NCBI GenBank assembly: GCA_036338695.1
Contig: JAYZBQ010000059.1
Span: forward strand, 132-64,131
Length of the DNA stretch: 64,000 nt
DNA from: Myxococcota bacterium
Lineage (GTDB): Bacteria; Myxococcota; UBA4151
Direction of reading: 5' to 3'
The position numbers and the translations under genes are program-made. Below are positions 6,838-47,415 of this stretch, in pieces. The first letter of the stretch is position 1, and the number at the start of each line of letters is the position of its first letter. Under the pieces are notes generated by a model. The model ran no database searches. It saw nothing but the letters and a program-made list of their open reading frames with translations, and was not told the DNA's origin.

Positions 6838-8226
6838 CTAGCCTAGGATTTCAAGCCCCTGGCGCGCTGTGACCTGCGCCGCCGGGCGGACGATGCGCTG
6901 GATACCCCCCACGAGGTCATAGTCATGGACCTCTTCGATGGTCAGCTCGACGAGATCGCCCGGGTTGGCCCAGCCGTCGTTGATGTAGGTGATGCCGTCG
7001 ATCTCCGGCGCTTGGCTCATCGAGCGCCCCTGGAGCAACAGCTCCGTCTCTTCGCTCACCCCGTCGACGAGGACTTGGATGGTCTGCCCGACCAGCCGCT
7101 CGTTGTGCCGCCGGTGGATCGACGCCTGAAGTTCCATGATCTTCGCCTGCCGCTCCGCCTTGACCTTCTCGCTGACTTGGTCGGGGAGGGTGGCTGAGGG
7201 CGTGCCCTCTTCTTGGCTGTATCGGAAGACACCGACGCGCTGGAACTCCATCTCTTTGACGAAGTCGTAGAGGGCTTGGAATTCCTCTTCGGTCTCACCG
7301 GGGTAGCCGACGATGAAGCTGGTCCGCATGGTCAGCCCCGGCACCTCTTGCTTGAGCCGGTGCAGGATCGAGCGGATCTTGTCGGGGTGGGTGCCGCGCT
7401 TCATGCGCTTGAGCATGTCCCCGTGGATGTGCTGGATCGGCATGTCGAGGTAGGGGAGCACTTTCGGGTGGTCCCGCATCAGCTCGAGCAGAGGCTCTTT
7501 GATGTTGCGCGGGTAGGCGTACATGAGCCGGATCCAGGCTAACCCGTCGATCTGAGCGAGGCGAGCCACGAGGTCATGGAGCGTCGGTCGCCCGGGGAGG
7601 TCCACCCCGTAGGCTGTGAGGTCCTGCGCCACCAAGATCAGCTCGCGCACGCCGGTCGCAGCGAGTCGCTCCGCCTCGACGGCGAGGTCCTCAATCTCTC
7701 GGCTATTTTGTACCCCGCGAAGTGTCGGGATGATGCAGAACGCACATTTGTTCGAGCAGCCCTCGGCGATCTTCAGGTACGCTGTGTGCCGCGGCATCGA
7801 GTTGACGCGTGGGACGGCGGAGGTCGCCACGAAGTCGGGGTCGGAGACGATCCGCCGAGGCATGTCGCCGGCTCGCTCGAGCACCTCAGAGATTTTGGCG
7901 TACTCGGCGGTCCCTAAGAAGTAGTCGACCTCTGGCATCTCTTCAGCGAGCTGGTCGGCGTAGCGCTGCGCGAGGCAGCCGCTCACGACCAAGGCTCGGC
8001 AGCGGCCATGGTCTTTGTACTCCGCCATCTCCAAGATCGCATCGACGCTCTCTTCTTTGCTCTCGTCGATGAAGGCGCAGGTGTTGACTACAATCGCCTC
8101 GGCGCGGTCGGGTTCGTCGACAACCTGCCAGCCCTTGACCCCCAGAATCGCCAACATGTGCTCGGCGTCGACCCGGTTTTTCGGGCAGCCGAGGCTGACA
8201 AAGTGGACGCGGCGATCGGGGATCAT
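6838..8226 (-). CDS. rimO: Ribosomal protein S12 methylthiotransferase
   Basis: SLGCPKNRVD, NTCAFI, radical SAM CSNKCAFC, QAPEIDG TRAM end. Start trimmed to ATG 8226. Confidence 0.95.
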   Translation of the reverse strand: MIPDRRVHFVSLGCPKNRVDAEHMLAILGVKGWQVVDEPDRAEAIVVNTCAFIDESKEESVDAILEMAEYKDHGRCRALVVSGCLAQRYADQLAEEMPEVDYFLGTAEYAKISEVLERAGDMPRRIVSDPDFVATSAVPRVNSMPRHTAYLKIAEGCSNKCAFCIIPTLRGVQNSREIEDLAVEAERLAATGVRELILVAQDLTAYGVDLPGRPTLHDLVARLAQIDGLAWIRLMYAYPRNIKEPLLELMRDHPKVLPYLDMPIQHIHGDMLKRMKRGTHPDKIRSILHRLKQEVPGLTMRTSFIVGYPGETEEEFQALYDFVKEMEFQRVGVFRYSQEEGTPSATLPDQVSEKVKAERQAKIMELQASIHRRHNERLVGQTIQVLVDGVSEETELLLQGRSMSQAPEIDGITYINDGWANPGDLVELTIEEVHDYDLVGGIQRIVRPAAQVTARQGLEILG

Positions 8227-8381
8227 GGGGACTCCTTGACGACCTACCTTAGCGAGAGATCCGGCAAGACGGTACCGGAAACCACGCAGCCCCAACCGAC
8301 CGCCGGATGGCGCTGAAAACGATGGACCGTTTGTCGATGAGGGACACGAGCCAACTTCGACCTGCTCGCAGCCGGTAGACT

Positions 8382-8397
8382 TGGCGCACCAACTGCG
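8382..8397 (+). promoter_or_regulatory. Putative sigma54 promoter of the T3SS-like operon
   Basis: TGGCGCACCAACTGCG has GG(8383-84)-N10-GC(8395-96) spacing, 30 nt upstream of the sctJ GTG and its GAGGAG RBS. Confidence 0.55.
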
Positions 8398-8426
8398 TTT
8401 ACCTAGCGTCTGCGAGGAGACACATC

Positions 8427-9209
8427 GTGACGCTCTGGCGGTTGTTGGTGATGGCGTGCATGTTGGGGACGACAGCCTGCGCCAAAGAGGTCGTGCAGCA
8501 CAATTTGAGCGAACGACAAGCGACGCAGATCCAGGTGCTGCTCGAGAACGCTGGGATCGAGGCGGTCAAGGTGCGAGATCTTAAGGCGCGTACACCCAGC
8601 TTCTCTATTGAGGTGAGCCCAGGGGAGGCGAGTAAGGCGAGGCGCTTGTTGGTCCGTCATGACCTGCCGCGCCGCGAGAGCCGGGGAATGTCCGAGACCT
8701 TCTCGGCCGACCCAGGGTTGATCCCCACCGCCATGCAAGAGCGGGCGCGGCTGATCGCTGCGCTCTCGGGTGAGGTCGAGAAGAAGCTGCGGATGGTGCC
8801 GGGTGTCGCAGACGCACACGTGACCGTGGTGTTACCCGAAGACGACCCACTGCGTGACGTCGACGCGCCGGCGGAGCGGGCCACCGCGTCGGTCGTCTAC
8901 CGCTACCTCGTGAAGTCGGAAGCTGGCGAGAAGCCCCCGCTTGACGAGGGGGACTGTCGCTCGTTGGTCGCTGCGTCGATTCCGGGCTTGAGCCCGAATG
9001 ATGTCGTTGTCGTCGCCCGGCCAGCCATCGCTGATGTGTTTGAGAAGGTCGAGGGTGACCCGACCGTGAGCTTCCTTGGTGTCCGCGTCCATCCGAGCAG
9101 TCGGGGGCGTTTCCGCGCGGTGGTCTTCGGTCTGCTCGGCGTCTCGCTCCTGAGCTTAGCCGGTTTAGGCCTCGTGGTGATGCGACGGCGGCGAGAGGCG
9201 TCGGTGTGA
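8427..9209 (+). CDS. sctJ: Type III secretion inner-membrane ring lipoprotein (SctJ/YscJ family)
   Basis: Lipobox ...TTAC, HNLSERQATQIQVLL, GLIPTAMQERAR, LRMVPGVADAHVTVVLP, ASVV, SIPGLSPNDVVVV, C-terminal TM followed by RRRR. Confidence 0.85.
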   Translation: MTLWRLLVMACMLGTTACAKEVVQHNLSERQATQIQVLLENAGIEAVKVRDLKARTPSFSIEVSPGEASKARRLLVRHDLPRRESRGMSETFSADPGLIPTAMQERARLIAALSGEVEKKLRMVPGVADAHVTVVLPEDDPLRDVDAPAERATASVVYRYLVKSEAGEKPPLDEGDCRSLVAASIPGLSPNDVVVVARPAIADVFEKVEGDPTVSFLGVRVHPSSRGRFRAVVFGLLGVSLLSLAGLGLVVMRRRREASV

Positions 9210-10105
9210 GTGATCCTGCGCGCGACGCAGCGCTCGTCTGGGCGGTTGGGACGCGCGGGGGATTAGGTCATCTCGAGGGGTTACCTCCCGAGCGAATCGA
9301 GCAGCTAAGCGAAGCGGTACAGAAGGTGCTCGATCTGCCCCGCGAGCAGCGCGTCGCCTTCGCCGGGCGAGAGGCGCGGCGGCTGAGTGCCTCGCGGCTA
9401 CGTCGTGGCCTCGAGGGCATCGACCCGTCCTGGATCGTCGAGGCGCTGCGCGGTGAGGAACCCCATGTGGTGGCTGCTGCCCTGGTCTACTTGCCGACGC
9501 CAGTCCGTCGCACGGTCGTCAAGCTCCTGCCCCGCAAGGTGCGTGAGGCGATGCCCGACCGGAAGACGACGGCGAGCGTGGAGCAGCTCTGGCTGGTTCG
9601 CTGTCGCGACGTTTTAGACCGCCGTATTCAGACGCTGCTTCCGGACCTTCAGCGAGGCGCACAGATCGACGTGGCGGCGCTGGAGCTTCGGCTGCGTGCG
9701 CTGGGCCGGGTCGAGGCGGCGCTTGGCTTGTACCGAGTCGGCCGCTCAGCGCTCGCTCGCTTTATCGCCACGATGGAGCCAGAGGACCGAGCCTTGGTGC
9801 AAGAGGAGCTGAAAGCAGCCGACACGATGGAAGACGTTCGCGTGGAGCGTGCCGAGCGGTTCTGGGGGCGCGGCGCAGGCGTTGATCAAAAGGCAGACGA
9901 TCTCCACCTGCGGGCAGGGCTTTGGCAGCTCGCACATGTTCTGATCGTGGAGCGTTATGCGGCGCATCTGCGCAGCTACTTCTTGTACCTTCCGCGCCGT
10001 TGGGTGCAAGAGCTGGAGCTGATGACGGACAAGGTGCGCGAGCCGGAGGAGGGTTTTGCTGAGCGCCTGCTCACACACCTCGACTGGCTCCCAGGGGATG
10101 CATGA
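9206..10105 (+). CDS. T3SS-associated helical protein, FliG/SctK-like
   Basis: Coupled to sctJ by a GTGA overlap. IDPSWIVEALRGEEPHVVAAAL resembles the FliG-M EHPQ / SctK region. Position between sctJ and sctL matches SctK. Confidence 0.55.
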   Translation: MSDPARDAALVWAVGTRGGLGHLEGLPPERIEQLSEAVQKVLDLPREQRVAFAGREARRLSASRLRRGLEGIDPSWIVEALRGEEPHVVAAALVYLPTPVRRTVVKLLPRKVREAMPDRKTTASVEQLWLVRCRDVLDRRIQTLLPDLQRGAQIDVAALELRLRALGRVEAALGLYRVGRSALARFIATMEPEDRALVQEELKAADTMEDVRVERAERFWGRGAGVDQKADDLHLRAGLWQLAHVLIVERYAAHLRSYFLYLPRRWVQELELMTDKVREPEEGFAERLLTHLDWLPGDA

Positions 10106-10641
10106 TGGCGAGGATCATCAAGGCCGCGAAAGGGGAAGCCGAGCCGAGCCGAGCGCAGGTGGCGCGGCGTGTCGAAGAGGCCGAGGAGCAAGCTGAGGCT
10201 TTAGTACGCCAGGCTGGGCATGAAGGCTATGAGCAAGGTCGCCAGGAGGCTCAGGGCATGCTGGATCAAGTCCAAGAGCTCGAGCGGCAGCTGATCGAGC
10301 AGACGGATCGACGGATTCAGGGGGCCGCTCAGACCCTTGTCGAGGACCTCTTGCGCGCCGAGGTCGCTGACGCGGACGGGTTCCTCGATATGATCAGGCA
10401 CAGCCTGCGCGCCATGCGCCGCGGGCGCGAGATCTTCCTGAGGGTTCACCCGGACCGAGCGCAGTATCTTCAGACGCACCGTGACAGCCTGGTCGCCGTG
10501 CTCGGTCGGGCGCGGACGATCGAGATCCGAGAGGACATCTCGCTGGCGCTCGACGGCTGCGTCGTGGAGACCGACGCCGGCGTGCTCGACGTTGGCCTTG
10601 AGACGCAGCTAAGCGCTTTGTTTGAGGGGGTCGACCGATGA
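10102..10641 (+). CDS. sctL: T3SS stator, FliH/SctL family
   Basis: [10 protein letters not shown] (GxxxG repeat), [32 protein letters not shown]. Confidence 0.85.
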
Positions 10642-12479
10642 GCTATCGCCGCAGTCGGGTGATCCCACGCGCTGAGGTCGAAGAGGGCGCTCGCCTGGGT
10701 GTCCTGCGTGCACGCGCCATCGACCGGGCGCGTGTGATCTTGGAGCGCGCGCAGAACAGCGCCGAGCAGATGCGTCAGCAGCAGCGCGCGCAAGCCGCTC
10801 AAGACACCGAGGTCGAGGCGGGGCGGCGCTTGCTCAAGGCGCTGATTCAGCGTGACACCACCCTGAAGTCGAGTCGGGTGACGGTCGAGCAGATCCTAAG
10901 CGAGGCGACGCAGCGCGTGATCGGACGCAGCGAGCTGAGCCCAGAGGCGGTCGCCACGCTCGACGAGCGCCTCAGTGAGCTTCAGCGGCGTGATCGTGCC
11001 ACGCTGACCCATCCTGAGGAGGACGCACCTCGGACGCAGCCGTGGTTTGATCCGCGGCCGGACGCACAGTGGCGCATTGCGTACAACGACCTGGACTTTG
11101 AGCTCGGCGAGCTCACCAGCGAGGAGGTGAACGAGGAGGCTGAGTCCGGATTTCAGACCGGGCTTCCACGCCTGGCGGATGTCGTGCGTACGGCGCGCCC
11201 TGTTCGCCTGCGCGGCGCAGTCCACGAGCTCACGGGGCTGGTCTTGCAGGCCTCCGTGACGGGGGTGCGCATCGGTGAAGTCTGTGAGGTGAGCGACCCG
11301 GACTCGGGCCGCGTGATCACCTGTGAGGTGGTCGGCTTTCGGGGGAACTTGGTGATGCTGATGCCACTCGGCGAGGCCTCGGGGATCGGGCCGGACTCTG
11401 AGGTGGTTCCGACAGGGCGGCCGCTTGAGGTGCGCGCCGGCTGGGGCCTCTTGGGGCGCGTGCTGGATGGCTTAGGGCGCCCTATGGACGGTGGTCCCGC
11501 GCTTGAGAGCGTCGATGGCTTGGAGCCGTGGTCGATCGATCGCACGGCGCCTGACCCGCTGACCCGAGAGCGAGTCTCCAAGCCGATCTCCATGGGGATC
11601 CGCGCCATCGATGGACTGCTCACGGTAGGAGAGGGACAGCGCATCGGCGTCTTCGCTGGCTCCGGCGTCGGGAAGTCAACCTTGATGGGACAGATCGCAC
11701 GCAATACCGAGGCGGAGGTCGTGGTCGTCTGTCTGATCGGCGAGCGTGGCCGCGAGGTCCGCGACTTCATCGAGGAGAGCCTCGGTGAGGAGGGCATGAA
11801 GAAATCGGTCGTCGTCTGCGCAACGTCCGATACGCCGTCGTTGGTGCGCCTGAAGTCAGCGTTTGTTGCCACGGCGATCGCCGAGTGGTTTCGCGATCAA
11901 GGAGCCAAAGTGCTGTTCATGATGGACAGCTCGACGCGCTTTGCCCGTGCGCAGCGGGAGATCGGACTGGCGCTCGGTGAGCCGCCCGCTCGACAAGGCT
12001 ATCCGCCGTCCGTGTTTGCCCAGATTCCGCGTTTGATGGAGCGCACGGGCAATTCAGCGCTGGGCTCGATCACGGCTTTGTACACGGTCTTGGTCCAAGC
12101 GGGCGATATGGAGGAGCCGATCGCCGATGAGGTGCGCGGGATCCTCGACGGGCACATTATCCTCAACCGCGACCTCGGCGCCCGCAATCACTGGCCGGCG
12201 ATCGACGTGCTGCCCTCGTTGAGTCGCGTGATGAACGGCATCGTCGACGCCGAGCATCGCACCGCTGCTGCTGCGCTGCGAGAGGTGTTGGCTGCCTACG
12301 AGAAACAGCGCGATTTGATCTTACTCGGCGCCTACGAGTACGGCTCGGATGACGCAACCGACTACGCCATCGACCGGATCGAAGAGGTCGAAACCTTCCT
12401 GAGGCAAGGGACGGAAGAGTCGCAAATTCTCGGCGCGACGCGTGAGGACCTTGTCCAGCTCTTCGCTGATCGGGTTTAG
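10638..12479 (+). CDS. sctN: T3SS ATPase (SctN/FliI) with a fused N-terminal SctL-like helical domain
   Basis: Walker [56 protein letters not shown]. About 170 extra N-terminal residues (SRVIPRAEV...[16 protein letters not shown]). Confidence 0.92.
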
Positions 12480-12481
12480 CG

Positions 12482-12958
12482 ATGGCGGACGCCTATCGGT
12501 TGGCTGCGCTGCTCAAGCTGCGCCAGCGCGCCCGGGAGGAGGCTGAGCAACAGCTCGCCGTCGCACAGTCGGCACAGAAAAAGGCGGAGCAGCATGTCGA
12601 GGCGGCGCAGAAGTTTGAGGCTGCTTGCCGCGCACGCGTCGAGGAGGCGAAGGCGCAACTCTACGCCGGCGAGGGGCTGACGATCGGCAAGATTCAGTCG
12701 CGCGAGCAGTACATCAAGAGGCTGGTCGCCGAGCTGGAAGAGGCGCTCGAGGCGGTGGCGCAGGCGGAGCGAGCGCTCGAAGCGGCGCGCCAGCAGGTCC
12801 GCGAGGCCAACGCCGCCATGGTCAAAGCAAAGCAGGACGAAGAAGCCCTGATCAAACACCGCGAGAAGTGGGAGAAGGAACAGCAAGTGATCCAGCGCCG
12901 GCGAGAAGAGGACGAGGCGGACGACATCGCGCAGACGCTCTGGCGCAGTAAAAAGTGA
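12482..12958 (+). CDS. sctO: T3SS stalk, SctO/FliJ family coiled-coil
   Basis: YRLAALLKLRQRAREEAE...LIKHREKW...REEDEADDIA, immediately after the ATPase. Confidence 0.8.
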   Translation: MADAYRLAALLKLRQRAREEAEQQLAVAQSAQKKAEQHVEAAQKFEAACRARVEEAKAQLYAGEGLTIGKIQSREQYIKRLVAELEEALEAVAQAERALEAARQQVREANAAMVKAKQDEEALIKHREKWEKEQQVIQRRREEDEADDIAQTLWRSKK

Positions 12959-13200
12959 GACCTTGGTGGCTGCTCGTCTGGACGCTCGTCAGCTGCCGCT
13001 GTGAGCGAATCGAGACGATCTCGGTTGCAGCGCCGATGGGCGAGGAGGCAGGCCCGAGCGCAACCATCCCGAGCGCTGCGCAGCCACCCGTACCCCGGCT
13101 GGATCGTTTGGTCCACGATGAGGCGAGCGTCGAGCGCAGCGTGCGTGCGCTCAAAGGGATGGGATTAGGCCGTTTGATCGATGGGGGACCGACGCCCTAG
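12955..13200 (+). CDS. Small putative exported/lipoprotein at the end of the T3SS-like operon
   Basis: GTGA overlap with the sctO stop and hydrophobic N-terminus MRPWWLLVWTLVSC. It overlaps the prmC 3' end by 36 nt. Confidence 0.4.
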   Translation: MRPWWLLVWTLVSCRCERIETISVAAPMGEEAGPSATIPSAAQPPVPRLDRLVHDEASVERSVRALKGMGLGRLIDGGPTP

Positions 13201-14037
13201 CGTGACGCGCTCGCGCTGTCCGAGGTCTCGGTGCGTCGCCACGTCATAAAACCCTGCGTCGTGAAAGAGCGAGCGCAGCGCGTCACCTTGTTGATGACCA
13301 TGCTCCATGAGCAGCCAACCGCGCTCGCTGAGATGATCCTTGGATTCCGGGATCAATCGCCGGATCAAGTCGAGGCCATCGTCCCCTGAGAACAGCGCCA
13401 ACTCCGGGTCGTGATGGGCGACTTCCGGGTCGAGCGTCGGTCGCTCGGACCAGCCGATGTAGGGCGGGTTGCAGACGATCAGGTCAAAGCCCACACCGAG
13501 TCCTTGAAGCCCATCGGCGTGCACCCACTCAAGCGTTTGGTCCGGTACGCACTCCCTGGCGTTACGCCGCGCGACCGCCAGCGCCGGCTCGCTGATGTCA
13601 CTCGCCACGACCCGCCATTGCGGTCGCTCGGCCGCCAAACTGATCGCTAGGCAACCGCTCCCTGTGCATAGGTCCAAGACCTTCGCCTCGGTGGGCAGCT
13701 CCAGCTCGAGGCTGAGCGCGACGAGCTGCTCTGAGTCTGCGCGCGGTGAGAGCACGTCGCCGTCAACGAAGAAGTCATGATTCCAGAACCCTTTTCGCTG
13801 CAAGATGCGGCTGACCGGCTCGCGCCGCCCGCGCCGTTGCAAGAGCGGGCGAAAAGCTGCGAGCTCAGGCTCATTGAGCGGTCGGTCGGTCTGCAGGTAG
13901 AGATTGAGACGTTTCATCCCGAGTGCGTGTGCCAGCAGGGTCCCGGCGTCGACCTTGGGTTGGTCGACTCCTCGCTGCGCCAGCCAGGCTTCGCTGACCT
14001 TCAGGATCGAGCCGATGGTGTGGGTTTGAGCGTTCAT
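13165..14037 (-). CDS. prmC: Release factor glutamine methyltransferase
   Basis: RRGRREPVSRI, VLSPRADSE, LDLCTGSGC, NPPY, ALFSGDDGLD. Confidence 0.95.
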   Translation of the reverse strand: MNAQTHTIGSILKVSEAWLAQRGVDQPKVDAGTLLAHALGMKRLNLYLQTDRPLNEPELAAFRPLLQRRGRREPVSRILQRKGFWNHDFFVDGDVLSPRADSEQLVALSLELELPTEAKVLDLCTGSGCLAISLAAERPQWRVVASDISEPALAVARRNARECVPDQTLEWVHADGLQGLGVGFDLIVCNPPYIGWSERPTLDPEVAHHDPELALFSGDDGLDLIRRLIPESKDHLSERGWLLMEHGHQQGDALRSLFHDAGFYDVATHRDLGQRERVTLGRRSPIDQTA

Positions 14038-15398: not shown

Positions 15399-16048
15399 GG
15401 GGTGCCGTCGCGGAAGACTCGGGCGCTGACCTCCAACGAGAGCACGCCGTCGACCACCCGGGGGGCGGTCGCTGAGATGGGGAGGATCTGCCCTGAGCCT
15501 CTCGATTGTTTCGCGATCCGCTCGATCGCATCGAGACGTGCCCGCTGGATGTGCGTCGCGCTCGGCTTGACCTTACCGATGGTGATTTTGCCGGTCGCCA
15601 TGGCGGCGGTGCCCCCTGGGTTGGGGACGCGCAGCGTGATGGTCGCCACGTTGAGCCCAAGCTCTTGGGAGCGCTCGATCTGGTGCGGCGGGAGCTGCGC
15701 AGGGCTCTGCGGCATCACGATCACCTTGTCTTCGCCAGTCACCGCATAGCGCAAGCCGCTGATCGCCTGCGCAAGCCCTTTACGTGCCCGGGCGTCTTCG
15801 GGGCGCAGGGGGCGTGGTTTCGCCGGGATGGTCGCATAGCCTCTCGCCACGAGCGCCAGCTCCTGATGCTTTTCGACCATAAGGTCTGCAGCCGCCGGTT
15901 TATTTCCTGCGTCGGGCTGAGCGGCGGTCACCGCAATCGGAGCGATACCCGCTCCGGCGTCTGGAGTGGTCTTTGGCTGCGACGACGACGTGCAGCTTTT
16001 GCACCCGCTGAGTGCCAGGCAGGCGGTCAGCGCACTGAGTGTTCGCAT
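15395..16048 (-). CDS. Hypothetical lipoprotein
   Basis: MRTLSALTACLALSGC lipobox, followed by the myxobacterial-type DAG linker. Confidence 0.7.
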   Translation of the reverse strand: MRTLSALTACLALSGCKSCTSSSQPKTTPDAGAGIAPIAVTAAQPDAGNKPAAADLMVEKHQELALVARGYATIPAKPRPLRPEDARARKGLAQAISGLRYAVTGEDKVIVMPQSPAQLPPHQIERSQELGLNVATITLRVPNPGGTAAMATGKITIGKVKPSATHIQRARLDAIERIAKQSRGSGQILPISATAPRVVDGVLSLEVSARVFRDGTP

Positions 16049-16059
16049 GATCGGTTCGC

Positions 16060-17088
16060 CTATTTATCGTCCGGTGTGGGGGGAGCGGGCGCCGGGGCGG
16101 GCTCCGGCTGGGGCGCAGGCGCTGGGGCGGGCGCCGGCGTGGGAGCAGGCGCTGGCTGCGCAGCGGCGGGCGCAGCGGGTGCTGCCGGGATCGGCAGCGC
16201 GATGGGGGCCTTGCGGAGGCGCTCGGCGGCGGCGCTGGTCTTTACGCTGCCTGCGGCTGCTGCCGGGCGCGCCGCTTTCTTCTTCTTCTGCGCTTTCTTA
16301 CCGACAGGGATCCGCCACCAGATCGACAGCTGCGGCAGGAAGTCGGCGTCCGGTCGTCCTTCGGGAGCCACGCGATTCATGGGGATCCAGAGCGGGTTGT
16401 AGAGTACGGCGACGCCGATACGTGTCGATTGACCGATCGCTCGGAGGTATTCCATTTTCCCTGTAAAGGTGGGGAGCGGCTCAAGGACTGAGCCGTTGTC
16501 GAGCGTGGTCCCGCCGACTGGTAGGGTGTAGTGCACCTGCAAGGCGACCGCGCTGTAATCGTCGATGACGCGCAAGTAGTCGACGTCCACCCACGGCTGG
16601 TTCACGCCAAAGCGGAGGATGTCCTCGGCTTCGTCCTGGCGCATCCCGGTGATCCCCTTCGTCGCCGCCCGATAGCCCGGCGAGACGGACAAGAAGGTCC
16701 CTTTGTTGACTTTGATGGTCATCGGCATCGAGATACCAAGGACCGTGTAGTCTTGATTTTGACCATCAAAATCGGGTGAGTAGACGAGCTCAGGCGCTAG
16801 CGACAAGATGAAGTTGGGCGTGTTCACCATGCGTGACTTGATGCGCATGTTGGTGATGCCCGTCATGAAGAGCAGCAGCGAGCTCTCGATGGTGAGGTCG
16901 TCCGTGAGCCCAAAGGCCGAGTTACGCCGAATCATCTGAGGCGAGAAGTAGCTCGCCACCAAGGGGAACAAGAAGCTGTCCTTCTCGAGGGTAGCCGCCG
17001 AATTGTAGACGAACGGTCGGTCGTAGCTAAAAGCGGGTTGAATCGGCTGTGCGGCGAGCGCGAGGCTAGCGATGAGGGTCGGCGTCAT
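16060..17088 (-). CDS. Putative outer-membrane beta-barrel protein with Lys/Pro/Ala-rich C-terminal tail
   Basis: Start ATG 17088 with GGAG RBS, signal-like N-terminus, alternating amphipathic strands, C-terminal (PA)n run. Confidence 0.6.
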   Translation of the reverse strand: MTPTLIASLALAAQPIQPAFSYDRPFVYNSAATLEKDSFLFPLVASYFSPQMIRRNSAFGLTDDLTIESSLLLFMTGITNMRIKSRMVNTPNFILSLAPELVYSPDFDGQNQDYTVLGISMPMTIKVNKGTFLSVSPGYRAATKGITGMRQDEAEDILRFGVNQPWVDVDYLRVIDDYSAVALQVHYTLPVGGTTLDNGSVLEPLPTFTGKMEYLRAIGQSTRIGVAVLYNPLWIPMNRVAPEGRPDADFLPQLSIWWRIPVGKKAQKKKKAARPAAAAGSVKTSAAAERLRKAPIALPIPAAPAAPAAAQPAPAPTPAPAPAPAPQPEPAPAPAPPTPDDK

Positions 17089-41275: not shown

Positions 41276-42715
41276 ATGAGTTATCGAAACCCAACCCTTG
41301 CCCTTGTAGGTGCCTTCGCGCTTGCCGGTTGCGCCGATGAAGCAAACGAGCCGAATCAAAACGGCAATAACGACGCCGGGCCGACCACCGGTACGCTGCC
41401 CTCCCAGGTGACCTGTGAGGGGGACGTCTGCCGCGTCGCAGCGCCGGCAAACAACCCTATCGTTGAGGACGTCACCTTTACCGCAGACAAGCGCTGGCTG
41501 CTCCAAGGAGGTGTCTTCATCGGCAACGACACCGATGAGACGACTTTGACGATTGAACCGGGGACGACGCTTTATGGTGAGACCGCCTCGAAAGCCTTCT
41601 TGGTCATTCGACGAAACGCAAAGATCGAGGCGAATGGGACGAAAGAGGCGCCTATCGTCATGACGTCCTCCAAAGAGCCGGGACAGCGCGCCCGCGGCGA
41701 CTGGGGCGGCTTGGTGATCAATGGCAAAGCCACGATTAACACCTGCCCCGAAGGGACCAGCGGAGCCTGCACTGCCGAGGGTGAGGGCGGTACCGGTGCC
41801 TACGGCGGCGACGACGACACGGACAACAGCGGTACGCTCCGATACGTGCGTGTTGAGTTCGCAGGAAATCCCATTACCGAAGACAATGAGCTCAACGGGA
41901 TCGCCTTCCAAGGTGTGGGTAGCGGCACGACGCTCGAGTACATTCAAGTTCACATGGCTGATGACGACGGGATCGAGTTCTTCGGTGGTACGGCAAGCTT
42001 TAAGTACGTGATCACCACAGGGATTGCTGACGATAACCTCGACTGGACCGATGGTTGGCGTGGTAAGGGTCAGTTCTACATCGCCCAGCAATACTCGGAT
42101 GATGGCGACCAGGGTATCGAAGCGGACAATAACGGGGACGCCAACGCAGCGACCCCTCGCTCAAACCCGATGCTCTCCAACCTGACCTTGGTCGGTTCAC
42201 CGGATTCGAGTGATTCGGACATCGGTATTCTTCTTCGAGAGGGCACGGGCGCAAAGATCCACAGCGCGGTGGTCGTCGGGTTCAACGATGCCTGTTTGGA
42301 CATCGACCACCCGGAGACCTGGAATAATGGCGAGCCGGTGCTGGCACACAGTGTGGTCAACTGCGAGAAAGCCTATAAATACGAGAAGTGGGACTGTGAC
42401 GAGGATGAAGCCGCTGAGTGTGCCGAAGCTGGCGTCGTTGAGGGCGACCCGCGCGAGCCGTGGCAGGTAGAAGCCTGGTTTACCGGTGCAGCGGGCAACG
42501 TGAAGGTGGACTGGCCTGAGACCGGGGACCGGAACCTTGTCCTGACCGATGCCTACAATGAGACGACTCCGAACTTTGCTCCGAAAGCTGATGGCGAAGC
42601 TTCAAGCGGCGGTTCCGTTCCGAATGATTCCTTCTTCACGGACGTGACGTTCCGAGGTGCTGTGGATCCAGCGAACGACTGGACGACAGGCTGGACGACC
42701 GCTGCGAAGAACTAA
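41276..42715 (+). CDS. Acidic beta-helix surface lipoprotein (TonB-receptor-associated type)
   Basis: LAGC lipobox, TLTIEPGT, GDWGGLVING, DNSGTLRYVRVEFAG, DDGIEFFGG, DDNLDWTDG, GIEADN, C-terminal WTTGWT. Confidence 0.85.
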   Translation: MSYRNPTLALVGAFALAGCADEANEPNQNGNNDAGPTTGTLPSQVTCEGDVCRVAAPANNPIVEDVTFTADKRWLLQGGVFIGNDTDETTLTIEPGTTLYGETASKAFLVIRRNAKIEANGTKEAPIVMTSSKEPGQRARGDWGGLVINGKATINTCPEGTSGACTAEGEGGTGAYGGDDDTDNSGTLRYVRVEFAGNPITEDNELNGIAFQGVGSGTTLEYIQVHMADDDGIEFFGGTASFKYVITTGIADDNLDWTDGWRGKGQFYIAQQYSDDGDQGIEADNNGDANAATPRSNPMLSNLTLVGSPDSSDSDIGILLREGTGAKIHSAVVVGFNDACLDIDHPETWNNGEPVLAHSVVNCEKAYKYEKWDCDEDEAAECAEAGVVEGDPREPWQVEAWFTGAAGNVKVDWPETGDRNLVLTDAYNETTPNFAPKADGEASSGGSVPNDSFFTDVTFRGAVDPANDWTTGWTTAAKN

Positions 42716-42740
42716 GTTCAAGCGAATTTGATCGACCAGG

Positions 42741-42772
42741 TGCTGGAGGACCCTCGGGTCCTCCAGCATTTT
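42741..42772 (+). terminator. Intra-operon hairpin/terminator after the lipoprotein gene
   Basis: Perfect inverted repeat TGCTGGAGGACC-CTCG-GGTCCTCCAGCA followed by TTTT. Confidence 0.8.
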
Positions 42773-42801
42773 GTCAACTTTGTTACAGGGAGGAAAACGT
42801 T

Positions 42802-43530
42802 GTGTTGACAGTGTTTTCAATATTATTCGCCACACAGAACGCTCAAGTCACTCCGCTCGTTGATGCGCTGGTTCGTCTGCGCTCTGAGGTCGATTCGCTC
42901 GCCGTCGCCGTGGAAGACCAGCGCGCCGCCCAGCGGGCTGAACTTCGAACGCTTCGTGCTCAAGAGACGGATCTGACGCTCGAACTGCAGCGCGAGACGA
43001 CTCGCCTCAGTCAGGCGAAGGCGCTTATGGAGAAGCGAAAAGCCGCCATCGCGTTGGCGGCGTCGGGAAGTGAGCGCTTGCTACCCGGCTTAGAGCAAGC
43101 GCTGATTCAGTTGAAACGAGACGTTCTGGCCGATCTACCGTTCCGACAAGAGGGGCGCGTGCAAGCCATTGAGGAGCTGCTCAGACAACTCAAAGAAGGG
43201 CTGCTGACACCGGCAAAGGGCGTTGTGCGTTACTATGCGTTGATCGAAGACGAGCTGCGCATCGGGCGCGAGAGTTCGCTGCAGCGTCAAGCCGTGCTTG
43301 TGGATGGTAAGCGCTACCTAGCCGATGTCCTCCATCTAGGACGTATGCACATGTACTTTCGGCTGCCGAACGGTGACCTTGGTTGGGCGAACCAGAGCGC
43401 CGCGGGGTTCGAGTTCCGTCGGACTAGCGATCCAGACGATGCGCAGCGTATTGGTCAGTTGTTTGAGCTCTTTGAGCGTCGAGTGCGAACCGGTTGGTTC
43501 GACCTCCCGGTGGAAGGGAACCGACGATGA
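42802..43530 (+). CDS. DUF3450 family periplasmic coiled-coil protein (TtpB-like)
   Basis: Coiled coil, LPFRQEGR, VLHLGRMHMYF. First gene of the Ton motor cluster. Confidence 0.75.
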   Translation: MLTVFSILFATQNAQVTPLVDALVRLRSEVDSLAVAVEDQRAAQRAELRTLRAQETDLTLELQRETTRLSQAKALMEKRKAAIALAASGSERLLPGLEQALIQLKRDVLADLPFRQEGRVQAIEELLRQLKEGLLTPAKGVVRYYALIEDELRIGRESSLQRQAVLVDGKRYLADVLHLGRMHMYFRLPNGDLGWANQSAAGFEFRRTSDPDDAQRIGQLFELFERRVRTGWFDLPVEGNRR

Positions 43531-44909
43531 TCGTTTTGATGATGATGCTCGGCGCACAACCGACTGTTGCAACGGCGGCCGAAAAGGTCGACCTGACATT
43601 GATCTACAAGCGTGAATACACCCTCCTAAAGGCTCAGAAAGAAGCGCTCAAAAAGAGGCTCGCTGGCTTAAGGGGCGGACAGGACTCGGAGCTTGAGAAA
43701 CGCAGGCAGCGTATCGCCTCGTTGCGGGCGAAGTTGGTCGCCGCTCAGCTCGAAGCCGATGGACTCGAGGACTTGATGACCGGCTTTGACCAAAAGGTCG
43801 AGCGAGCCGAAGAGGGGCGTGAGTCCGTTCGCGACACTTTTGCGCGTGCAGCGGCTTTGCTCGAGGTCAAGACCTTAGAGCTCAAAGCGGACCAAGAAGC
43901 GAGTAGGGAACAACTGCTCGCCATGGCGACCGCAGCGACGAATGCGCTCAAAGCGGGGCGCACGGTTCGTCAGGAGCGAGCCACCTACTTTAATCGAGAG
44001 GGTAAAGAGGTTGCAGGGGATGTGTTGCTCTATGGTGCGCTCGCTCGGTTTGCGGTGGATGGCGCCGGAGCCGGAGCTTTGTCGCCTGCAGGAGCGGGGC
44101 GCTGGAAGATTTGGCCGGTGGACGCCAAGGAGTCGATCGCTGCGATTAAACAGAAGGCGACGCCCCCAGGTTTATTGCTCTACGAGCACCCGGATAAAGC
44201 CATGGACCCGTCACCATCGAAGACGGTTATGGGCGAAATGAAGAAGGGGGGCGTCATCGGTTGGGTGATCGTCAGCTTAGGCGTGCTCGGGCTCTTGATG
44301 ATCCTAGTTCGCGTCGGGATTGTCTGGCTTGGAAGATCCCGTGAGGAGGTCGTCCGGCGCGCCATAGCAGAGGCTGAATTGGGACGGGTGGCGCAAGCCC
44401 AAACGATCCTCGGTGAGGGACACGGCGTCGCAGAGCAGGTTTTAGCTGAGGTCATGAGTCGGCTTGACGGCGGTGCCGAGGTGATGCGTCAAGTCGTCGA
44501 GGACAATGTCGCTCGGCAGGAGGCGCGCTTGGCGCGTTTCGGCTCGATGATTCAAGTTTGTGCGGCGGTAGCTCCGCTTCTTGGCTTGCTTGGGACCGTC
44601 ACGGGGATGATCGCGACCTTCGACGTCATTACGGAATTTGGTACCGGAGATCCCAAGTTGCTTTCGGGTGGAATCTCGGAGGCATTGGTGACCACTCAGC
44701 TTGGACTGATCGTCGCCATCCCCTGCCTGCTCCTCGGTCAAATGATGAACGCGTGGGCGGAGCGGACCGTTAGCGAAGCCGAGGAGTTGGGTTATCAGCT
44801 CAGCATGTTGCTCGAGGACGTTGTCGTCCCGTTAACGACAAAGGAGACCGTATCATGCGAGATCTCATCGAACGATGTCTCGATGCCCTCGCCGGCACCG
44901 GCTTTGTAG
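43527..44909 (+). CDS. Long ExbB/TolQ-family protein with periplasmic N-terminus (TtpC-like)
   Basis: ATGA overlap start, GGVIGWVI, APLLGLLGTVTGMIATF, GDPKLLSGGISEALVTTQLGL. Confidence 0.88.
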   Translation: MIVLMMMLGAQPTVATAAEKVDLTLIYKREYTLLKAQKEALKKRLAGLRGGQDSELEKRRQRIASLRAKLVAAQLEADGLEDLMTGFDQKVERAEEGRESVRDTFARAAALLEVKTLELKADQEASREQLLAMATAATNALKAGRTVRQERATYFNREGKEVAGDVLLYGALARFAVDGAGAGALSPAGAGRWKIWPVDAKESIAAIKQKATPPGLLLYEHPDKAMDPSPSKTVMGEMKKGGVIGWVIVSLGVLGLLMILVRVGIVWLGRSREEVVRRAIAEAELGRVAQAQTILGEGHGVAEQVLAEVMSRLDGGAEVMRQVVEDNVARQEARLARFGSMIQVCAAVAPLLGLLGTVTGMIATFDVITEFGTGDPKLLSGGISEALVTTQLGLIVAIPCLLLGQMMNAWAERTVSEAEELGYQLSMLLEDVVVPLTTKETVSCEISSNDVSMPSPAPAL

Positions 44910-45280
44910 GGTTACCGCTGATATTCTGTGCTGCGCTGCTTGGCTATGCGCTGTGCTGGCGGCTCATGCTGGTCATGAGTGGGCGTGTGGGGGGAAGCTC
45001 AGAGGCGCTCCACAGCGTCTGTGCGGCTGCTGCAGCCGTGGCGCCTCTGCTTGGCTTGCTTGGCACGGTCACCGGTATGATCGAGACATTCGACAGCCTT
45101 GGTGAGATGGCGATGCATACGCAAGGCGGCGGTATTGCGGGCGGTATTTCGGAGGCACTCCTCTCGACTCAGCTCGGCCTCTGTGTGGCGATTCCCGGGC
45201 TCACACTCGATCGTCTGCTTTTGCGAGTTGAGGCTCGATTTATGCGTGAAAATGAAGGGTTAAGTCATGGCACGACGTAA
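44855..45280 (+). CDS. exbB: Short ExbB/TolQ proton channel
   Basis: APLLGLLGTVTGMIETF, AGGISEALLSTQLGL. Confidence 0.85.
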   Translation: MRDLIERCLDALAGTGFVGLPLIFCAALLGYALCWRLMLVMSGRVGGSSEALHSVCAAAAAVAPLLGLLGTVTGMIETFDSLGEMAMHTQGGGIAGGISEALLSTQLGLCVAIPGLTLDRLLLRVEARFMRENEGLSHGTT

Positions 45281-45668
45281 GAAGCGCGGCGGCGCTGATG
45301 TGGATATGTCGCCGCTGATCGATATGGTCTTCATTCTTCTCATCTTCTTTATGGTCAGCACGACCTTTGTCAAAGATATGAAGGTCGAACTTGATCGCCC
45401 ATCAGCCTCTAGCGCTCGAAGAGCTTCAACCAAGTCGATTCGGATTCAGATCGCCAAGGGGGGGAGGATCCACTTGGACGGTGTCCCCGTGAAGGCTTGG
45501 ATGCTTCAGAGTCGTCTCAAAGAACGGTTAGAGGGTGCGACCGACAAGAGCGTTTTGGTGATCACGGATCGACGCATCGCAGCTGAGAAGCTTGTGGAGG
45601 TTGTGGATCAATGTCGGCTGGCAGGCGCCGCTGATGTTGGCGTCGCAACTGATCTCGAGGCCGGCTAA
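45267..45668 (+). CDS. exbD: Biopolymer transport protein ExbD
   Basis: DMSPLIDMVFILLIFFMVSTTF, VVDQCRLAGA. Confidence 0.92.
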   Translation: MARRKKRGGADVDMSPLIDMVFILLIFFMVSTTFVKDMKVELDRPSASSARRASTKSIRIQIAKGGRIHLDGVPVKAWMLQSRLKERLEGATDKSVLVITDRRIAAEKLVEVVDQCRLAGAADVGVATDLEAG

Positions 45669-46291
45669 TGAGGATCGCTCGACACATGGTGGCGCTGGTT
45701 GTTGGCTTGGTAACGGGCTTGGGCGCGCTGGTTATGCTGGCGGTCCTGGACCAGCCGATACCCGTTAAGCATAAAGCAAAAACGAACAGCGCTGTCGCGA
45801 TGCAGGTCAAGCGAACGAAGCCAAAGAAGCGCAAGCCGAAGCCGAAGCGACGTAAGCCCAAAAATAAGCCGAAGCGGTCCCTGAAAGCCCCGCCGCCCAT
45901 GGCGAGCGACTTATCCGACGTGGCGCTTTCCGGCGGAATGGATTGGGGGCTTGAGAGCAGCGGTGAGGATTGGCTCAATCAGCGCTCCACCAAAGATTTG
46001 GTGATGTCAGAGGGGAGCGTCGACGCGCCGCCACGGCCGTCGGAGCGCGTGCCTCCGGAGTATCCAGAAGAAGCCCATGCGCTCGGTACGGAGGGGAAAG
46101 TGACCCTGAGTTTGCTGATCTCAAAATCTGGGTCCGTTGAGCGCATTCGCGTGGTCAATGCAGCTCCCAAGGGAATCTTCGAGGATGCCGCAAAGGCTGC
46201 CGTGCGCCAGTGGCGATTCGAACCGGGTCGTTATCAAGGTGACCCCGTGCGTGTGTGGGCACGCCAGGTAATCCACTTTAAGGTGATGTGA
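45668..46291 (+). CDS. tonB: Energy transducer TonB
   Basis: N-terminal TM, K/P-rich linker, PEYPEEA...EGKV...FEDAAKAAVRQWRFEP. Confidence 0.9.
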   Translation: MRIARHMVALVVGLVTGLGALVMLAVLDQPIPVKHKAKTNSAVAMQVKRTKPKKRKPKPKRRKPKNKPKRSLKAPPPMASDLSDVALSGGMDWGLESSGEDWLNQRSTKDLVMSEGSVDAPPRPSERVPPEYPEEAHALGTEGKVTLSLLISKSGSVERIRVVNAAPKGIFEDAAKAAVRQWRFEPGRYQGDPVRVWARQVIHFKVM

Positions 46292-47415
46292 TGATGACGC
46301 TGATGTTCTCGTTGCTGGTGCTCGCCGGCCCAGCGGCTGATGGTGATGAGATCGATCACCTCGCCCTCGCTGCGCTGCTCATGCGCGATGGACACGCCGA
46401 GCGGGCGCAGATCGAGCTAGCCAAGGTGAACCCTAAGGGCGAGGAGGTTGATCGTTTCCAGCTTTGGTTGCTCAAAGGGATTGCTTCGCTTCGGCTCAAG
46501 CAGCCCCAGTCAGCGTTGGTCTTTCTGAGCCGCGCGCTCGAGGTCAAAGAGGACCCTCAGGTGCATCTGCTGAGGGCACAAGCGGGCGCACAACTCAAGC
46601 GTTGGGACGTGGTCGTCGAGGCGTTGGATGGTGCCGGTTCCCTCAGTTTCCGAGATCCTAAGTTGCTCATCATGAGGGGAACTGCGCTGCTAAAGCTCAA
46701 GCGTTTTGGAGAGGCTTACGCCCTCACGGAGCGGCAGCTTCAGCACCATCCGGCAGCGATCGGGTTGGTGACCATCCAAGTGCAGGCTCTTATTGGGCTT
46801 CAACTGTACAACTCGGCTGCTGAGCGAGCTCTTTCGATGGTCACTCGAGCAGAGTTAACGCCTCGTGACGGGCTGCGCTTGGTTGATTCCTTGCGTCGAG
46901 CGAAGCGGCTCGATCAAGCCCTGCGTTGCGTCGAGGCATTGACCATGAGGTTTCCAGACGACCGAGAGGTGGCGCTCTTGCACGCTCGGCTGCTGCTCAA
47001 GGCGAAAAGGGTACAAGCTGCTGCGAATCGACTCGAGCGAGCTGCTTGGGTCGACCCCTCGCTCGCCTCTGACGCCGCCGAGCTTTTCCGGCGCGCAGGT
47101 AATTGGACTCGAGCTCGGGCTTGGAATGCACGGATCCAGGACCCAGCGACGAAGCTGAATCAGCGTCTTGGGCTGCTTGTTTCGGCTGAGCGGTTTGATG
47201 AGGTCATGGCACTGCGTCACCGTTTGCAGCGACTCGGTCTCGGTAACGATGACAAGGTGCGCTATGCGCTTGCCTTTTCAGCGTTTCGAACAGGCGCCTT
47301 TGATCAAGTAGACTCCCTCCTTGAGGGGATCATGTCGGAGTCGGTCTTTGAGCAGGCTATTGAGCTGCGTCGAGCGGCGAGTCGGTGTCAGGTTGACCCG
47401 GCGGGTTGTCTCTAA
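46288..47415 (+). CDS. Periplasmic TPR protein (TtpD-like)
   Basis: Signal peptide and helical TPR-like repeats, directly after tonB. Confidence 0.75.
   Translation: MMMTLMFSLLVLAGPAADGDEIDHLALAALLMRDGHAERAQIELAKVNPKGEEVDRFQLWLLKGIASLRLKQPQSALVFLSRALEVKEDPQVHLLRAQAGAQLKRWDVVVEALDGAGSLSFRDPKLLIMRGTALLKLKRFGEAYALTERQLQHHPAAIGLVTIQVQALIGLQLYNSAAERALSMVTRAELTPRDGLRLVDSLRRAKRLDQALRCVEALTMRFPDDREVALLHARLLLKAKRVQAAANRLERAAWVDPSLASDAAELFRRAGNWTRARAWNARIQDPATKLNQRLGLLVSAERFDEVMALRHRLQRLGLGNDDKVRYALAFSAFRTGAFDQVDSLLEGIMSESVFEQAIELRRAASRCQVDPAGCL

Follow-up and report, generated by a model that had tools for sequence, protein, structure and literature searches.

Type III secretion systems (T3SS) without needle and secretin have been described in the Myxococcales, for which Abby and Rocha (2012; PMC3459982) speak of a "Myxo" type. 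Myxococcus xanthus has two systems, one of which is the predation-linked, "needle-less" T3SS*, a member of the Myxo type that is given as mxan_2434-2464 in PMC10433427 and PMC12075869. In the account of PMC3459982 the Myxo systems are said to be without FliG, in that of PMC12403147 FliO is reported in non-flagellar T3SS of Myxococcota, and a recent preprint, in its treatment of the families, groups FliG and SctK as structurally similar (bioRxiv 10.1101/2025.03.14.643159). Here we describe a T3SS-related operon of a Myxococcota bacterium, which was noticed in a stretch of 64 kb (hereafter the window) and resembles the Myxo type overall. It shares with that type the phylum, the export apparatus, the ATPase, SctJ, SctL and SctQ, and secretin and the needle protein SctF were not found here either. 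It differs from it in the placement of its genes, in several components, and in its host, which also has a complete flagellum. Because its ATPase shares a clade with the ATPases of contiguous gate clusters, apart from the cell's own FliI, we read the operon as one part of a T3SS of the Myxococcota type whose genes are scattered and which has neither secretin nor recognisable needle, and we hold this reading with high confidence.

The operon consists of six ORFs on the forward strand, joined by four overlaps of 4 nt and one gap of 2 nt, and is flanked on the reverse strand by rimO (6838-8295) and prmC (13165-14037). The first gene, sctJ (8427-9209; 260 aa), encodes an inner-membrane ring lipoprotein matching Pfam YscJ_FliF (E 1.7e-18; 67.6 bits, cut-off 24.4) and scoring 128.8 bits with NCBIfam TIGR02544, under the cut-off of 161.95; its translation shows a signal/Cys region at the N-terminus and, at the C-terminus, a transmembrane helix followed by a cytoplasmic tail of eight residues. 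Only two YscJ_FliF genes are present in the genome, this one and fliF. After a FliG-like ORF2 (9206-10105; 299 aa) comes sctL (10102-10641; 179 aa), coding for the stator or spoke protein, with matches to Pfam FliH (4.6e-10) and T3SS_SCTL (6.1e-7) and 62.8 bits with TIGR02499, which is below the cut-off of 78.7. It is followed by sctN (10638-12479; 613 aa) and by sctO (12482-12958; 158 aa), the FliJ-like central stalk (Pfam YscO-like 1.3e-15, FliJ 1.9e-4). The last ORF (12955-13200; 81 aa) overlaps the end of the convergent prmC by 36 nt and has an L-V-S-C lipobox in its translation, so that a lipoprotein is predicted; it is 52–55% identical to counterparts at loci L010 and L011, has no match at L013 or at 11 other loci, and thus appears in the closest relatives only, with no Pfam or NCBIfam family match. 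The tightly coupled six-gene operon between rimO and prmC of the original prediction is therefore borne out by ORF coordinates and Pfam identities. The same is true of its statement that the window holds no sctQ, gate, needle, secretin or flagellar genes, since a family scan of 42 other ORFs of the window returned no T3SS or flagellar family. A MotA_ExbB match at 43494-44909 belongs to a TonB/ExbB receptor cluster.

Upstream of sctJ, the block GGTAGACTTG ... GCGTTTACCTA (8370-8412, forward strand) is conserved in the alignment of orthologues and marks a putative promoter region. The sigma-54-like motif inside it, TGGCGCaccaaCTGC at 8382-8396, deviates from the strict consensus, which has no match in the 64 kb, and a relaxed pattern gives three matches in the window against 1.29 expected, a count reached or exceeded in 14 of 100 shuffles. 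The blocks on either side of the motif are conserved in four of five aligned orthologous upstream regions; the GG and -12 (TTGC) elements are not conserved among the five. The sigma-54-type promoter proposed earlier was not upheld by these results. A sigma-70 scan of 8370-8412 found nothing.

The gene between sctJ and sctL occupies the position of sctK and fliG. ORF2 alone gives a weak Pfam hint, FliG_M at E 0.0017 (19 bits, under the cut-off of 25), which a profile of its family raises to a strong FliG match: the top 11 matches in the Protein Data Bank are all FliG (best E 2.3e-10), the two matched stretches span the FliG M and C domains, and hhalign pairs ORF2 with the genome's own FliG at 92% probability (E 5e-7). 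Structure prediction agrees, with an AF2 model of pLDDT 85.6 whose best Foldseek match is FliG 3hjl, a VIA structure ranking in which ranks 1–8 are all FliG (Z 9.8–5.6), and a middle domain that fits 4fq0_D at an rmsd of 2.0 Å over 78 residues. FliG_C or FliG_M is matched by 29 of 30 sampled relatives, some of them above the Pfam cut-off (for example FliG_C at 45.6 bits). Of 41 genomes from the phylum, 21 encode FliG-like homologues, and the pair of sctJ and FliG-like gene is found at all ten Myxococcota loci fetched for it, three of which have the full five-gene set. In genome G037, where the T3SS genes form a contiguous cluster, a FliG-like ORF also lies between sctJ and sctL (E 4e-32), which sets both G037 and the present genome apart from the Myxo systems as characterised in PMC3459982. 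Of the EHPQ motif region, just E84 and P86 are conserved. By profile and fold comparison, ORF2 is clearly homologous to FliG and is conserved across the phylum, which adds to what is known of these systems.

The resemblance to SctK (YscK/OrgA/PscK) lies in the position between sctJ and sctL, in the all-helical fold and in a weak match of residues 151-293 to PscK 6uie_B (rank 27, Z 4.4, rmsd 3.6 Å, 102 residues aligned). Unlike SctK, ORF2 matches FliG first in both sequence and fold, and the SctK families of Pfam (YscK, OrgA_MxiK, HrpB4) have no match to it at E ≤ 0.1, nor to any of the 30 sampled relatives at E ≤ 0.01; the SctK partner SctD was not found here. Of the earlier label "FliG/SctK-like", it is the FliG side that has become firm. 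That the fliG position is taken by a true homologue of FliG, in a gene order parallel to fliF-fliG-fliH-fliI-fliJ, also raises the alternative of an operon that supplies accessory ATPase and ring parts to the flagellar gate of the same cell (FlhA, FlhB, FliP, FliQ and FliR), and the flagellar flhA is indeed the only FlhA-type gene of the assembly. In comparison with the flagellar operon, SctJ lacks the C-terminal tail by which FliF binds FliG, as only eight residues follow its transmembrane helix, the N-terminus of ORF2 is shorter than that of FliG, and genes for stator, rod, hook or filament are not linked to the operon. Against the alternative, the flagellar loci have their own FliF, FliG, FliH and FliI, and the genome has a dedicated second gate. 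In genome G006 the module occurs together with only a single FHIPEP match and a single ATPase of the FliI/YscN type, and the gate genes there are closer to the non-flagellar than to the flagellar paralogues.

The ATPase speaks against a flagellar role in the same way. The core of SctN (residues 186-613; 11193-12479) matches Pfam ATP-synt_ab (1.2e-87) and T3SS_ATPase_C (3.2e-20), reaches 562.5 bits with the NCBIfam FliI/YscN subfamily (cut-off 379.5) and falls just under the cut-off of the SctN equivalog TIGR02546 (602.2 against 604.75 bits). SctN is 70–73% identical to non-flagellar orthologues across the phylum and 43–45% identical to FliI. In a tree of 47 ATPases with two F1 outgroups, built without reference sequences from M. 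xanthus or the injectisome families, it stands in a clade of 21 rows (support 100/99) with the gate-linked copies of G014 and G037, whereas the genome's own FliI belongs to a separate clade of 17 rows (support 97/99). Its neighbours in the tree come from gate-linked clusters in Myxococcota genomes of 9.0 and 9.4 Mb. We therefore consider the service to the flagellar gate very improbable.

A second feature of SctN is its N-terminal extension of 185 residues (10638-11192), in which the original prediction had seen an SctL-like part fused to SctN. The SctN part is confirmed by ATPase families and tree; the SctL-like part is weak, as it comes down to one Pfam HrpE match (E 1.6e-6; 28.6 bits, cut-off 23.5) that has no counterpart at E ≤ 0.01 in the L013 orthologue, while BLASTP against SctL finds nothing and hhalign gives a probability of 0.25%. 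The AF2 model predicts a long helix at 11-94 (pLDDT 82–96), a second helix at 102-124 and a low-confidence linker after it (below 50 for 128-176), and it has no SctL-type C-terminal globular domain. The extension occurs in only 12 closely related proteins and is 32% identical to that of the L013 orthologue, compared with 68% for the whole protein. This predicted helical extension, restricted to this family of genomes, is a second addition to knowledge and a difference from the Myxo type.

The original prediction was of a minimal module without export gate, possibly a reduced or split machine. In the whole assembly (3.36 Mb, 93.6% complete) we found a full flagellar set on contigs C48 and C76 (FliF, FliG, FliH, FliI, FliM, FliO-like, FliP, FliQ, FliR, FlhB and FlhA) and, besides it, a second, non-flagellar gate, so that the genome is not gate-less. 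Contig C45 carries sctQ (TIGR02551 93.7 bits, under the NCBIfam equivalog cut-off), a fliO-like gene, sctR, sctS and sctT, with SctR (C45:4417-5031) present in addition to the flagellar FliP; contig C74 carries sctU (15543-16559, 385.5 bits), additional to the flagellar FlhB, and then two small genes. The fliO-like gene in the gate operon is another point in common with the Myxococcota systems as presented in PMC12403147. Orthology to the contiguous cluster of G037 is evident in SctR (64% against 39.5% for FliP), SctU (42% against 35% for FlhB) and SctV (58% against 38% for FlhA). The absence of gate genes from the window and from the ten loci fetched around the sctJ and FliG-like pair, together with an assembly in which sctV is missing, would fit a self-sufficient ring-plus-ATPase machine of T3SS origin that works without SctRSTUV. 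This possibility is largely refuted, and hardly any likelihood is left to it: the same genome has the non-flagellar sctQ, sctR, sctS, sctT and sctU, sctV is found in the relatives, G006 and G037 have the same module genes adjoining gate genes, and the ATPase clade contains gate-linked copies. "Split" was thus the right half of the earlier description, and the minimal module lacking a gate was not. This comes close to the outcome that the original prediction had named as its refutation, save that the missing genes are scattered and do not make up one canonical cluster.

The remaining gate gene, sctV, was not found in this 93.6%-complete assembly, where the sole FHIPEP match is the flagellar FlhA and the flanks of the relatives' sctV have no counterpart. 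All five same-family genomes have at least two FHIPEP matches, that is, sctV is present, and the second copy is solitary at all five fetched loci. In cluster tables, a 708-aa SctV that is 94.8% identical to a same-genus copy is placed on a contig of 3,734,807 bases and a 480-aa form on one of 3,709,877 bases. For contigs of both sizes the tables also record the FliG-like protein, the extended ATPase and FlhA, and for the larger one SctL, SctR, SctS and SctU. From this placement on contigs of about 3.7 Mb, and not from read sequence, we infer that the species has sctV.

There are consequently at least four loci in the lineage: the operon, sctQ/fliO-like/sctR/sctS/sctT, sctU with two small genes, and the solitary sctV; the Myxo type has one conserved "short" or "long" locus. 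Core genes in several separate loci are also a trait of the Chlamydiales injectisome, a functional non-flagellar T3SS, as outlined in PMC3459982; that system has secretin and needle, injects eukaryotic cells, and differs in phylum and ATPase clade. The dispersal, the missing sctV, the 480-aa SctV copy and the equivalog cut-offs missed by SctJ, SctL, SctN and SctQ could also be taken for decay, namely a T3SS under loss in a small-genome marine lineage. We judge this improbable, as every ORF of the operon is intact, dN is 0.07–0.21 across the five main operon genes and far under the saturated dS, the terminal branch of SctN is short (0.021), a full-length SctV is on record on the other large contig, and the scattered layout is kept in five of five family genomes. 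At the level of sequence comparison, it is established that these T3SS genes exist, differ from the cell's own flagellar paralogues, are under purifying selection and are orthologous to the contiguous Myxococcota cluster.

The predicted absence of needle and T3SS secretin holds genome-wide for the families searched. A search of the assembly for SctF (PF09392) gave nothing at E ≤ 0.1, and SctD and SctI were not identified by family search, a further difference from the Myxo type. A C-terminal motif of a 365-aa protein beside sctU recurs in 72-aa ORFs belonging to the G037 cluster; among these ORFs, one weakly matches a chain of a needle-chaperone entry (E 0.0067). The genome has three secretin genes and none is near C45, C59 or C74: one lies beside pilM and is PilQ-type with an AMIN domain, the second is next to GspE- and GspF-type genes, and the third adjoins an FHA-TadA-like ATPase. 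Contig C95 carries a candidate Tad/Kil-like pilus locus.

If the operon is part of a scattered T3SS, the products of the four loci would form one apparatus, in which SctRSTUV and the FliO-like protein may build the gate inside the SctJ ring. We propose that ORF2 is an adaptor joining this ring to the SctQ pods, possibly by way of the face with which FliG contacts FliM. The SctN hexamer, with SctO forming its stalk, would be carried on spokes of SctL, and, more speculatively, the helical SctN extension could pair with SctL to give the ATPase a second stalk chain of its own. Substrates might be delivered to the periplasm only or handed to another envelope machine, for which a Tad/Kil-like pilus is conceivable by analogy with Myxococcus xanthus. 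A role in predation may be suggested on the same model.

A wider evolutionary scenario is possible, though we regard it as doubtful. An early-branching needle-less Myxococcota T3SS may have kept a genuine FliG at the fliG/sctK position, working without SctD, and this FliG-like protein may be a living intermediate between the FliF-FliG-FliM and SctD-SctK-SctQ connections, while the ATPase of the marine family may have gained its own stalk helix in place of one chain of the SctL dimer. If this were true, the family would therefore be a natural system showing how a rotor protein turns into a static adaptor, with a flagellum in the same cell.

Six ORFs lie on one strand of the window between rimO (6838-8295) and prmC (13165-14037), both on the minus strand; four of their junctions are 4-nt overlaps and one is a 2-nt gap. 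The first gene is sctJ (8427-9209, 260 aa, YscJ_FliF 1.7e-18), followed by ORF2 for a FliG-like protein (9206-10105, 299 aa), whose sole family match is FliG_M with E 0.0017, then sctL (10102-10641, 179 aa, FliH 4.6e-10 and T3SS_SCTL 6.1e-7), sctN with an N-terminal extension (10638-12479, 613 aa, ATP-synt_ab 1.2e-87 and T3SS_ATPase_C 3.2e-20), sctO (12482-12958, 158 aa, YscO-like 1.3e-15) and a small ORF (12955-13200, 81 aa) without family match. Against the family cut-offs, SctN scores 562.5 bits for the FliI/YscN subfamily (cut-off 379.5) and 602.2 for the SctN equivalog (cut-off 604.75). The 42 other window ORFs that were scanned are housekeeping, regulatory and Ton-system genes, and T3SS, flagellar and Tad families are absent among them. 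Thus the gene content of the operon is as originally predicted. When the genome carrying the window (G000) is compared with two loci of the same genus, the five main operon genes have dN values of 0.07-0.21 and the small ORF has 0.26-0.42, and dS is saturated (>1.8 or not computable); the low dN under saturated dS indicates that the operon genes are maintained. In a more distant family member (G005), a 1142-aa Ser/Thr protein kinase gene (L013:8226-11654) comes directly after sctO and replaces the small lipoprotein ORF. Elsewhere in the window, positions 41276-51178 form a block of lower G+C (0.58 vs approximately 0.63) with genes for DUF3450, ExbB-like, TonB_C and TPR proteins, a TonB-dependent receptor and a winged-helix regulator, and 58681-62445 (minus strand) encodes a 1254-aa protein made of DUF4215 repeats.

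The motif TGGCGCaccaaCTGC at 8382-8396 had been proposed as a sigma-54 promoter. The strict sigma-54 consensus has no match in the window, and a relaxed pattern has three against 1.29 expected, a count of at least three being reached in 14 of 100 shuffles. Among five aligned orthologous upstream regions, one lacks the GG and three have GAGC or TAGC as the -12 element; it is two flanking blocks, rather than the sigma-54 elements, that are conserved in this alignment. With no strict match, a relaxed count that shuffled sequence equals and poorly conserved elements, the sigma-54 assignment is not retained. A sigma-70 scan gave no site upstream of sctJ.

The operon had further been read as a minimal T3SS-like machine without export gate (SctRSTUV). 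The G000 assembly comprises 3.36 Mb in 99 contigs, is 93.6% complete and holds the window on contig C59. Its flagellar gene set is complete and lies on two contigs. C48 carries fliE, fliF, fliG, fliH and fliI, followed by an unassigned ORF of 224 aa and a fliK-like gene. On C76 are a MotB-type gene, fliL, fliM, a fliO-like gene, fliP, fliQ, fliR, flhB and flhA, together with an flhF-type GTPase gene, a gene for a MinD/ParA-type ATPase, rod and ring genes, flgM, flgK, flagellins, fliW, fliD and fliS. There are two FliI/YscN-type ATPases in the genome, the window copy and flagellar fliI. A second, non-flagellar set of gate genes is found on two other contigs. The 7.3-kb contig C45 bears five gate/platform genes, encoding SctQ (370 aa from its true start MEQGF…, TIGR02551 93.7 bits), a FliO-like protein, SctR (C45:4417-5031), SctS (92 aa) and SctT, and a second SctU/FlhB is encoded at C74:15543-16559 amid unrelated genes, the next ORFs being of 142 aa, 142 aa (opposite strand) and 365 aa. 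Since this second sctQ/R/S/T/U set places an export gate in the genome and outside the window, the reading as a gate-less minimal T3SS machine is largely refuted. Directly upstream of sctU and on the same strand, C74:12525-15524 holds three tandem AIM24-family genes and a metallo-beta-lactamase-fold gene, and the gene for a 901-aa DUF4215-repeat protein (C74:8861-11566) lies upstream of the solitary sctU at a distance of 4 kb.

Comparison with related loci, whose record titles are those of Myxococcota, shows to which system these dispersed genes are close. In G037, a 9.4-Mb genome of the phylum, sctJ, an ORF2 homologue (E 4e-32), sctL, sctN, sctO, sctQ, sctR, sctS, sctT, sctU and sctV are all contiguous. 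The C45 and C74 proteins are closer to this cluster than the flagellar paralogues of G000 are: SctR matches it at 64% and FliP at 39.5%, and SctU at 42% and FlhB at 35%; for a same-genus copy of SctV the value is 58%, against 38% for FlhA. Of the 41 Myxococcota genomes sampled, 21 (G000 included) have an ORF2 homologue. The sctJ-ORF2 pair is present in all ten fetched loci (ten genomes) and the full J-ORF2-L-N-O set in three, with an ATPase 7 kb off in one locus, and flagellar gate queries had no match in any of the ten. In G006, which is 100% complete and has one match to FHIPEP (the FlhA/SctV family) and one ATPase, the module has sctQ, sctR, sctS, sctT and sctU within a few kb, and sctV is on a separate contig.

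The phylogeny of SctN leads to the same grouping. The maximum-likelihood tree covers 47 of 57 listed ATPase places, with two F1 subunits as outgroup; the ten places outside it are G002 C593 and C255, G003 C36, G005 C80, G009 C6, G017 C112, G019 C179 and C584, G033 C93 and G035 C113. The window ATPase belongs to a clade of 21 rows (support 100/99) in which the gate-linked copies of G014 and G037, both other Myxococcota, are basal, and FliI of G000 falls in a separate 17-row clade (97/99). The window ATPase hence groups with gate-linked copies and apart from the genome's own FliI. The ATPase lies within 25 kb of an FHIPEP gene on the same contig in 2/21 rows of the window clade vs 12/17 of the FliI clade, so that a detached sctV is common for this system; the further split into four loci is a feature of the family of genomes to which G000 belongs. 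In many Myxococcota genomes of 5-11 Mb, a second ATPase of FliI/SctN type lies no more than 25 kb from an FHIPEP gene and is placed in the 17-row FliI clade.

A search of the G000 assembly for FHIPEP found a single gene, flagellar flhA, and no sctV. All five same-family genomes have at least two FHIPEP matches, and in 5/5 fetched loci the non-flagellar copy is solitary, with no matches to other T3SS queries there. The sctV neighbours in the same-family genomes G001, G004 and G005 have no orthologues in G000, a pattern of synteny that fits a deletion and an assembly gap alike. The 90% protein cluster around the same-genus SctV contains a member of 708 aa that shares 94.8% identity with the G001 protein and lies on a contig of 3,734,807 bases. 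A 480-aa member of this cluster, on a contig of 3,709,877 bases, covers residues 229-708, and this shorter call could reflect a frameshift, an alternative start or an assembly error. According to the cluster tables, the FliG-like protein, the extended ATPase and FlhA are likewise encoded on contigs of exactly 3,734,807 and 3,709,877 bases, and SctL, SctR, SctS and SctU are recorded for the 3,734,807-base contig. Equating contigs by their identical base counts, we infer that sctV is probably present in the species and unassembled in G000.

Within the families searched, the described absence of a needle and of a T3SS secretin was borne out. The family search of the G000 assembly gave no T3SS needle family, SctD and SctI were not recognised, and the three secretins of the genome all sit with other systems, namely a pilM-pilQ locus, a GspD/E/F locus and a Tad-like locus. 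In the last of these (C95:17442-22033; L100:9443-14034), the secretin gene runs off the contig end, and its neighbours encode an FHA-fused TadA/CpaF-like ATPase of 686 aa and a double-FHA protein of 635 aa, a domain content that is reminiscent of the M. xanthus Kil system. Near sctU, a 365-aa Gly-rich protein is encoded at C74:17535-18632 (L034:9536-10633). Its last ~35 residues (…ISNILKTMHDMSMTSIRNIR) are common to three identical 72-aa ORFs (L036:5053-5271, 7400-7618 and 7833-8051) and one 188-aa ORF (L035:8720-9286) of the G037 cluster. For the 72-aa ORF there is a weak match (E 0.0067) to 7y6c_F, one chain of a needle-chaperone entry, and its shared C-terminal motif presumably resembles the C-termini of needle and rod proteins. 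Neither the 72-aa nor the 365-aa protein has a Pfam match that would give it a needle or rod identity, and the C-terminus of the latter has no Protein Data Bank match. The proteins sharing the C-terminal motif could be subunits of needle or rod type in a T3SS that has been called needle-less.

The second gene of the operon, ORF2, codes for a homologue of FliG. A profile built on 18 members of its family retrieved FliG as all of the top 11 solved structures (best E 2.3e-10), with the middle and C-terminal domains as separate stretches, and hhalign of the family against FliG of G000 gave 92% probability. The AlphaFold2 model (pLDDT 85.6) has full-length FliG 3hjl as its first Foldseek match (E 9.9e-3, probability 1.00). 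In a wide VIA search, ranks 1-8 are FliG chains (Z 9.8-5.6), the middle domain superposing on that of FliG with an rmsd of 2.0 A over 78 residues, and PscK (SctK) appears first at rank 27 (Z 4.4), with no SctK chain higher. An exhaustive profile search collected 1348 representatives at E<=0.001, 114 of them at E<=1e-30; of 30 sampled, 29 have FliG_C or FliG_M and none matches the SctK family. Flagellar genes follow the order fliF-fliG-fliH-fliI-fliJ and injectisome genes the order sctJ-sctK-sctL … sctN-sctO, and the J-ORF2-L-N-O order equals both. The 2012 account of Abby & Rocha describes Myxo systems as lacking FliG (PMC3459982), whereas a FliG homologue is conserved here between sctJ and sctL. 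The listing of T3SS*, the needle-less system of M. xanthus (mxan_2434-2464), in the Kaimer review has no SctK (PMC10433427), and a preprint groups the FliG and SctK Pfam families as structurally similar (bioRxiv 10.1101/2025.03.14.643159). In the literature searched, no FliG-like gene is described in a myxobacterial T3SS, though figures and supplements of PMC3459982 may show unannotated genes there; the only "FliG-like" paper found concerns chlamydial FliF (PMC4768692).

The ATPase had been described as an sctL-like::sctN fusion. SctN residues 1-185 are confined to close relatives (12 proteins) and evolve fast, being 32% identical to the L013 orthologue vs 68% for the whole protein. In the model, a long helix spans 11-94 and a second one 102-124, and the linker after them is of low confidence. 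BLASTP and hhalign found no significant similarity of the extension to SctL, and the best match of its profile among solved structures, ATP synthase subunit b, is not significant (E 6.7). The lone Pfam HrpE match may reflect a charged helix. What stands of the fusion is an SctN with an extension and one HrpE match, and its likeness to SctL is weakly supported. A long tblastn match that aligned the extension to SctL of G037 vanished with the extension alone as query and was discarded as an extension artefact. Speculatively, the extension might act as a stalk-like helix pairing with SctL.

The operon is therefore best read as part of a non-flagellar T3SS of Myxococcota type, scattered and without a secretin, in a genome that also encodes a flagellum, and the tempting false lead of a gate-less minimal T3SS is removed. 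Needle-less T3SSs of this type can be scattered, with the ATPase/ring operon far from sctV, sctU and sctQRST, and locus-based detectors will consequently under-call such systems or call them "incomplete". The conserved FliG homologue bears on the origin of the injectisome sorting platform from the flagellar C-ring, and it is this proposed adaptor, along with the ATPase extension, that merits specialist attention. In M. xanthus, T3SS* is described as cooperating with the Kil Tad pilus to lyse prey (PMC10433427, PMC12075869). By analogy, a similar function may apply to the present system, a possible orthologue of T3SS*, and a flagellum, a T3SS and a Tad/Kil-like locus in one genome of 3.4-3.7 Mb would fit a motile predatory lifestyle.
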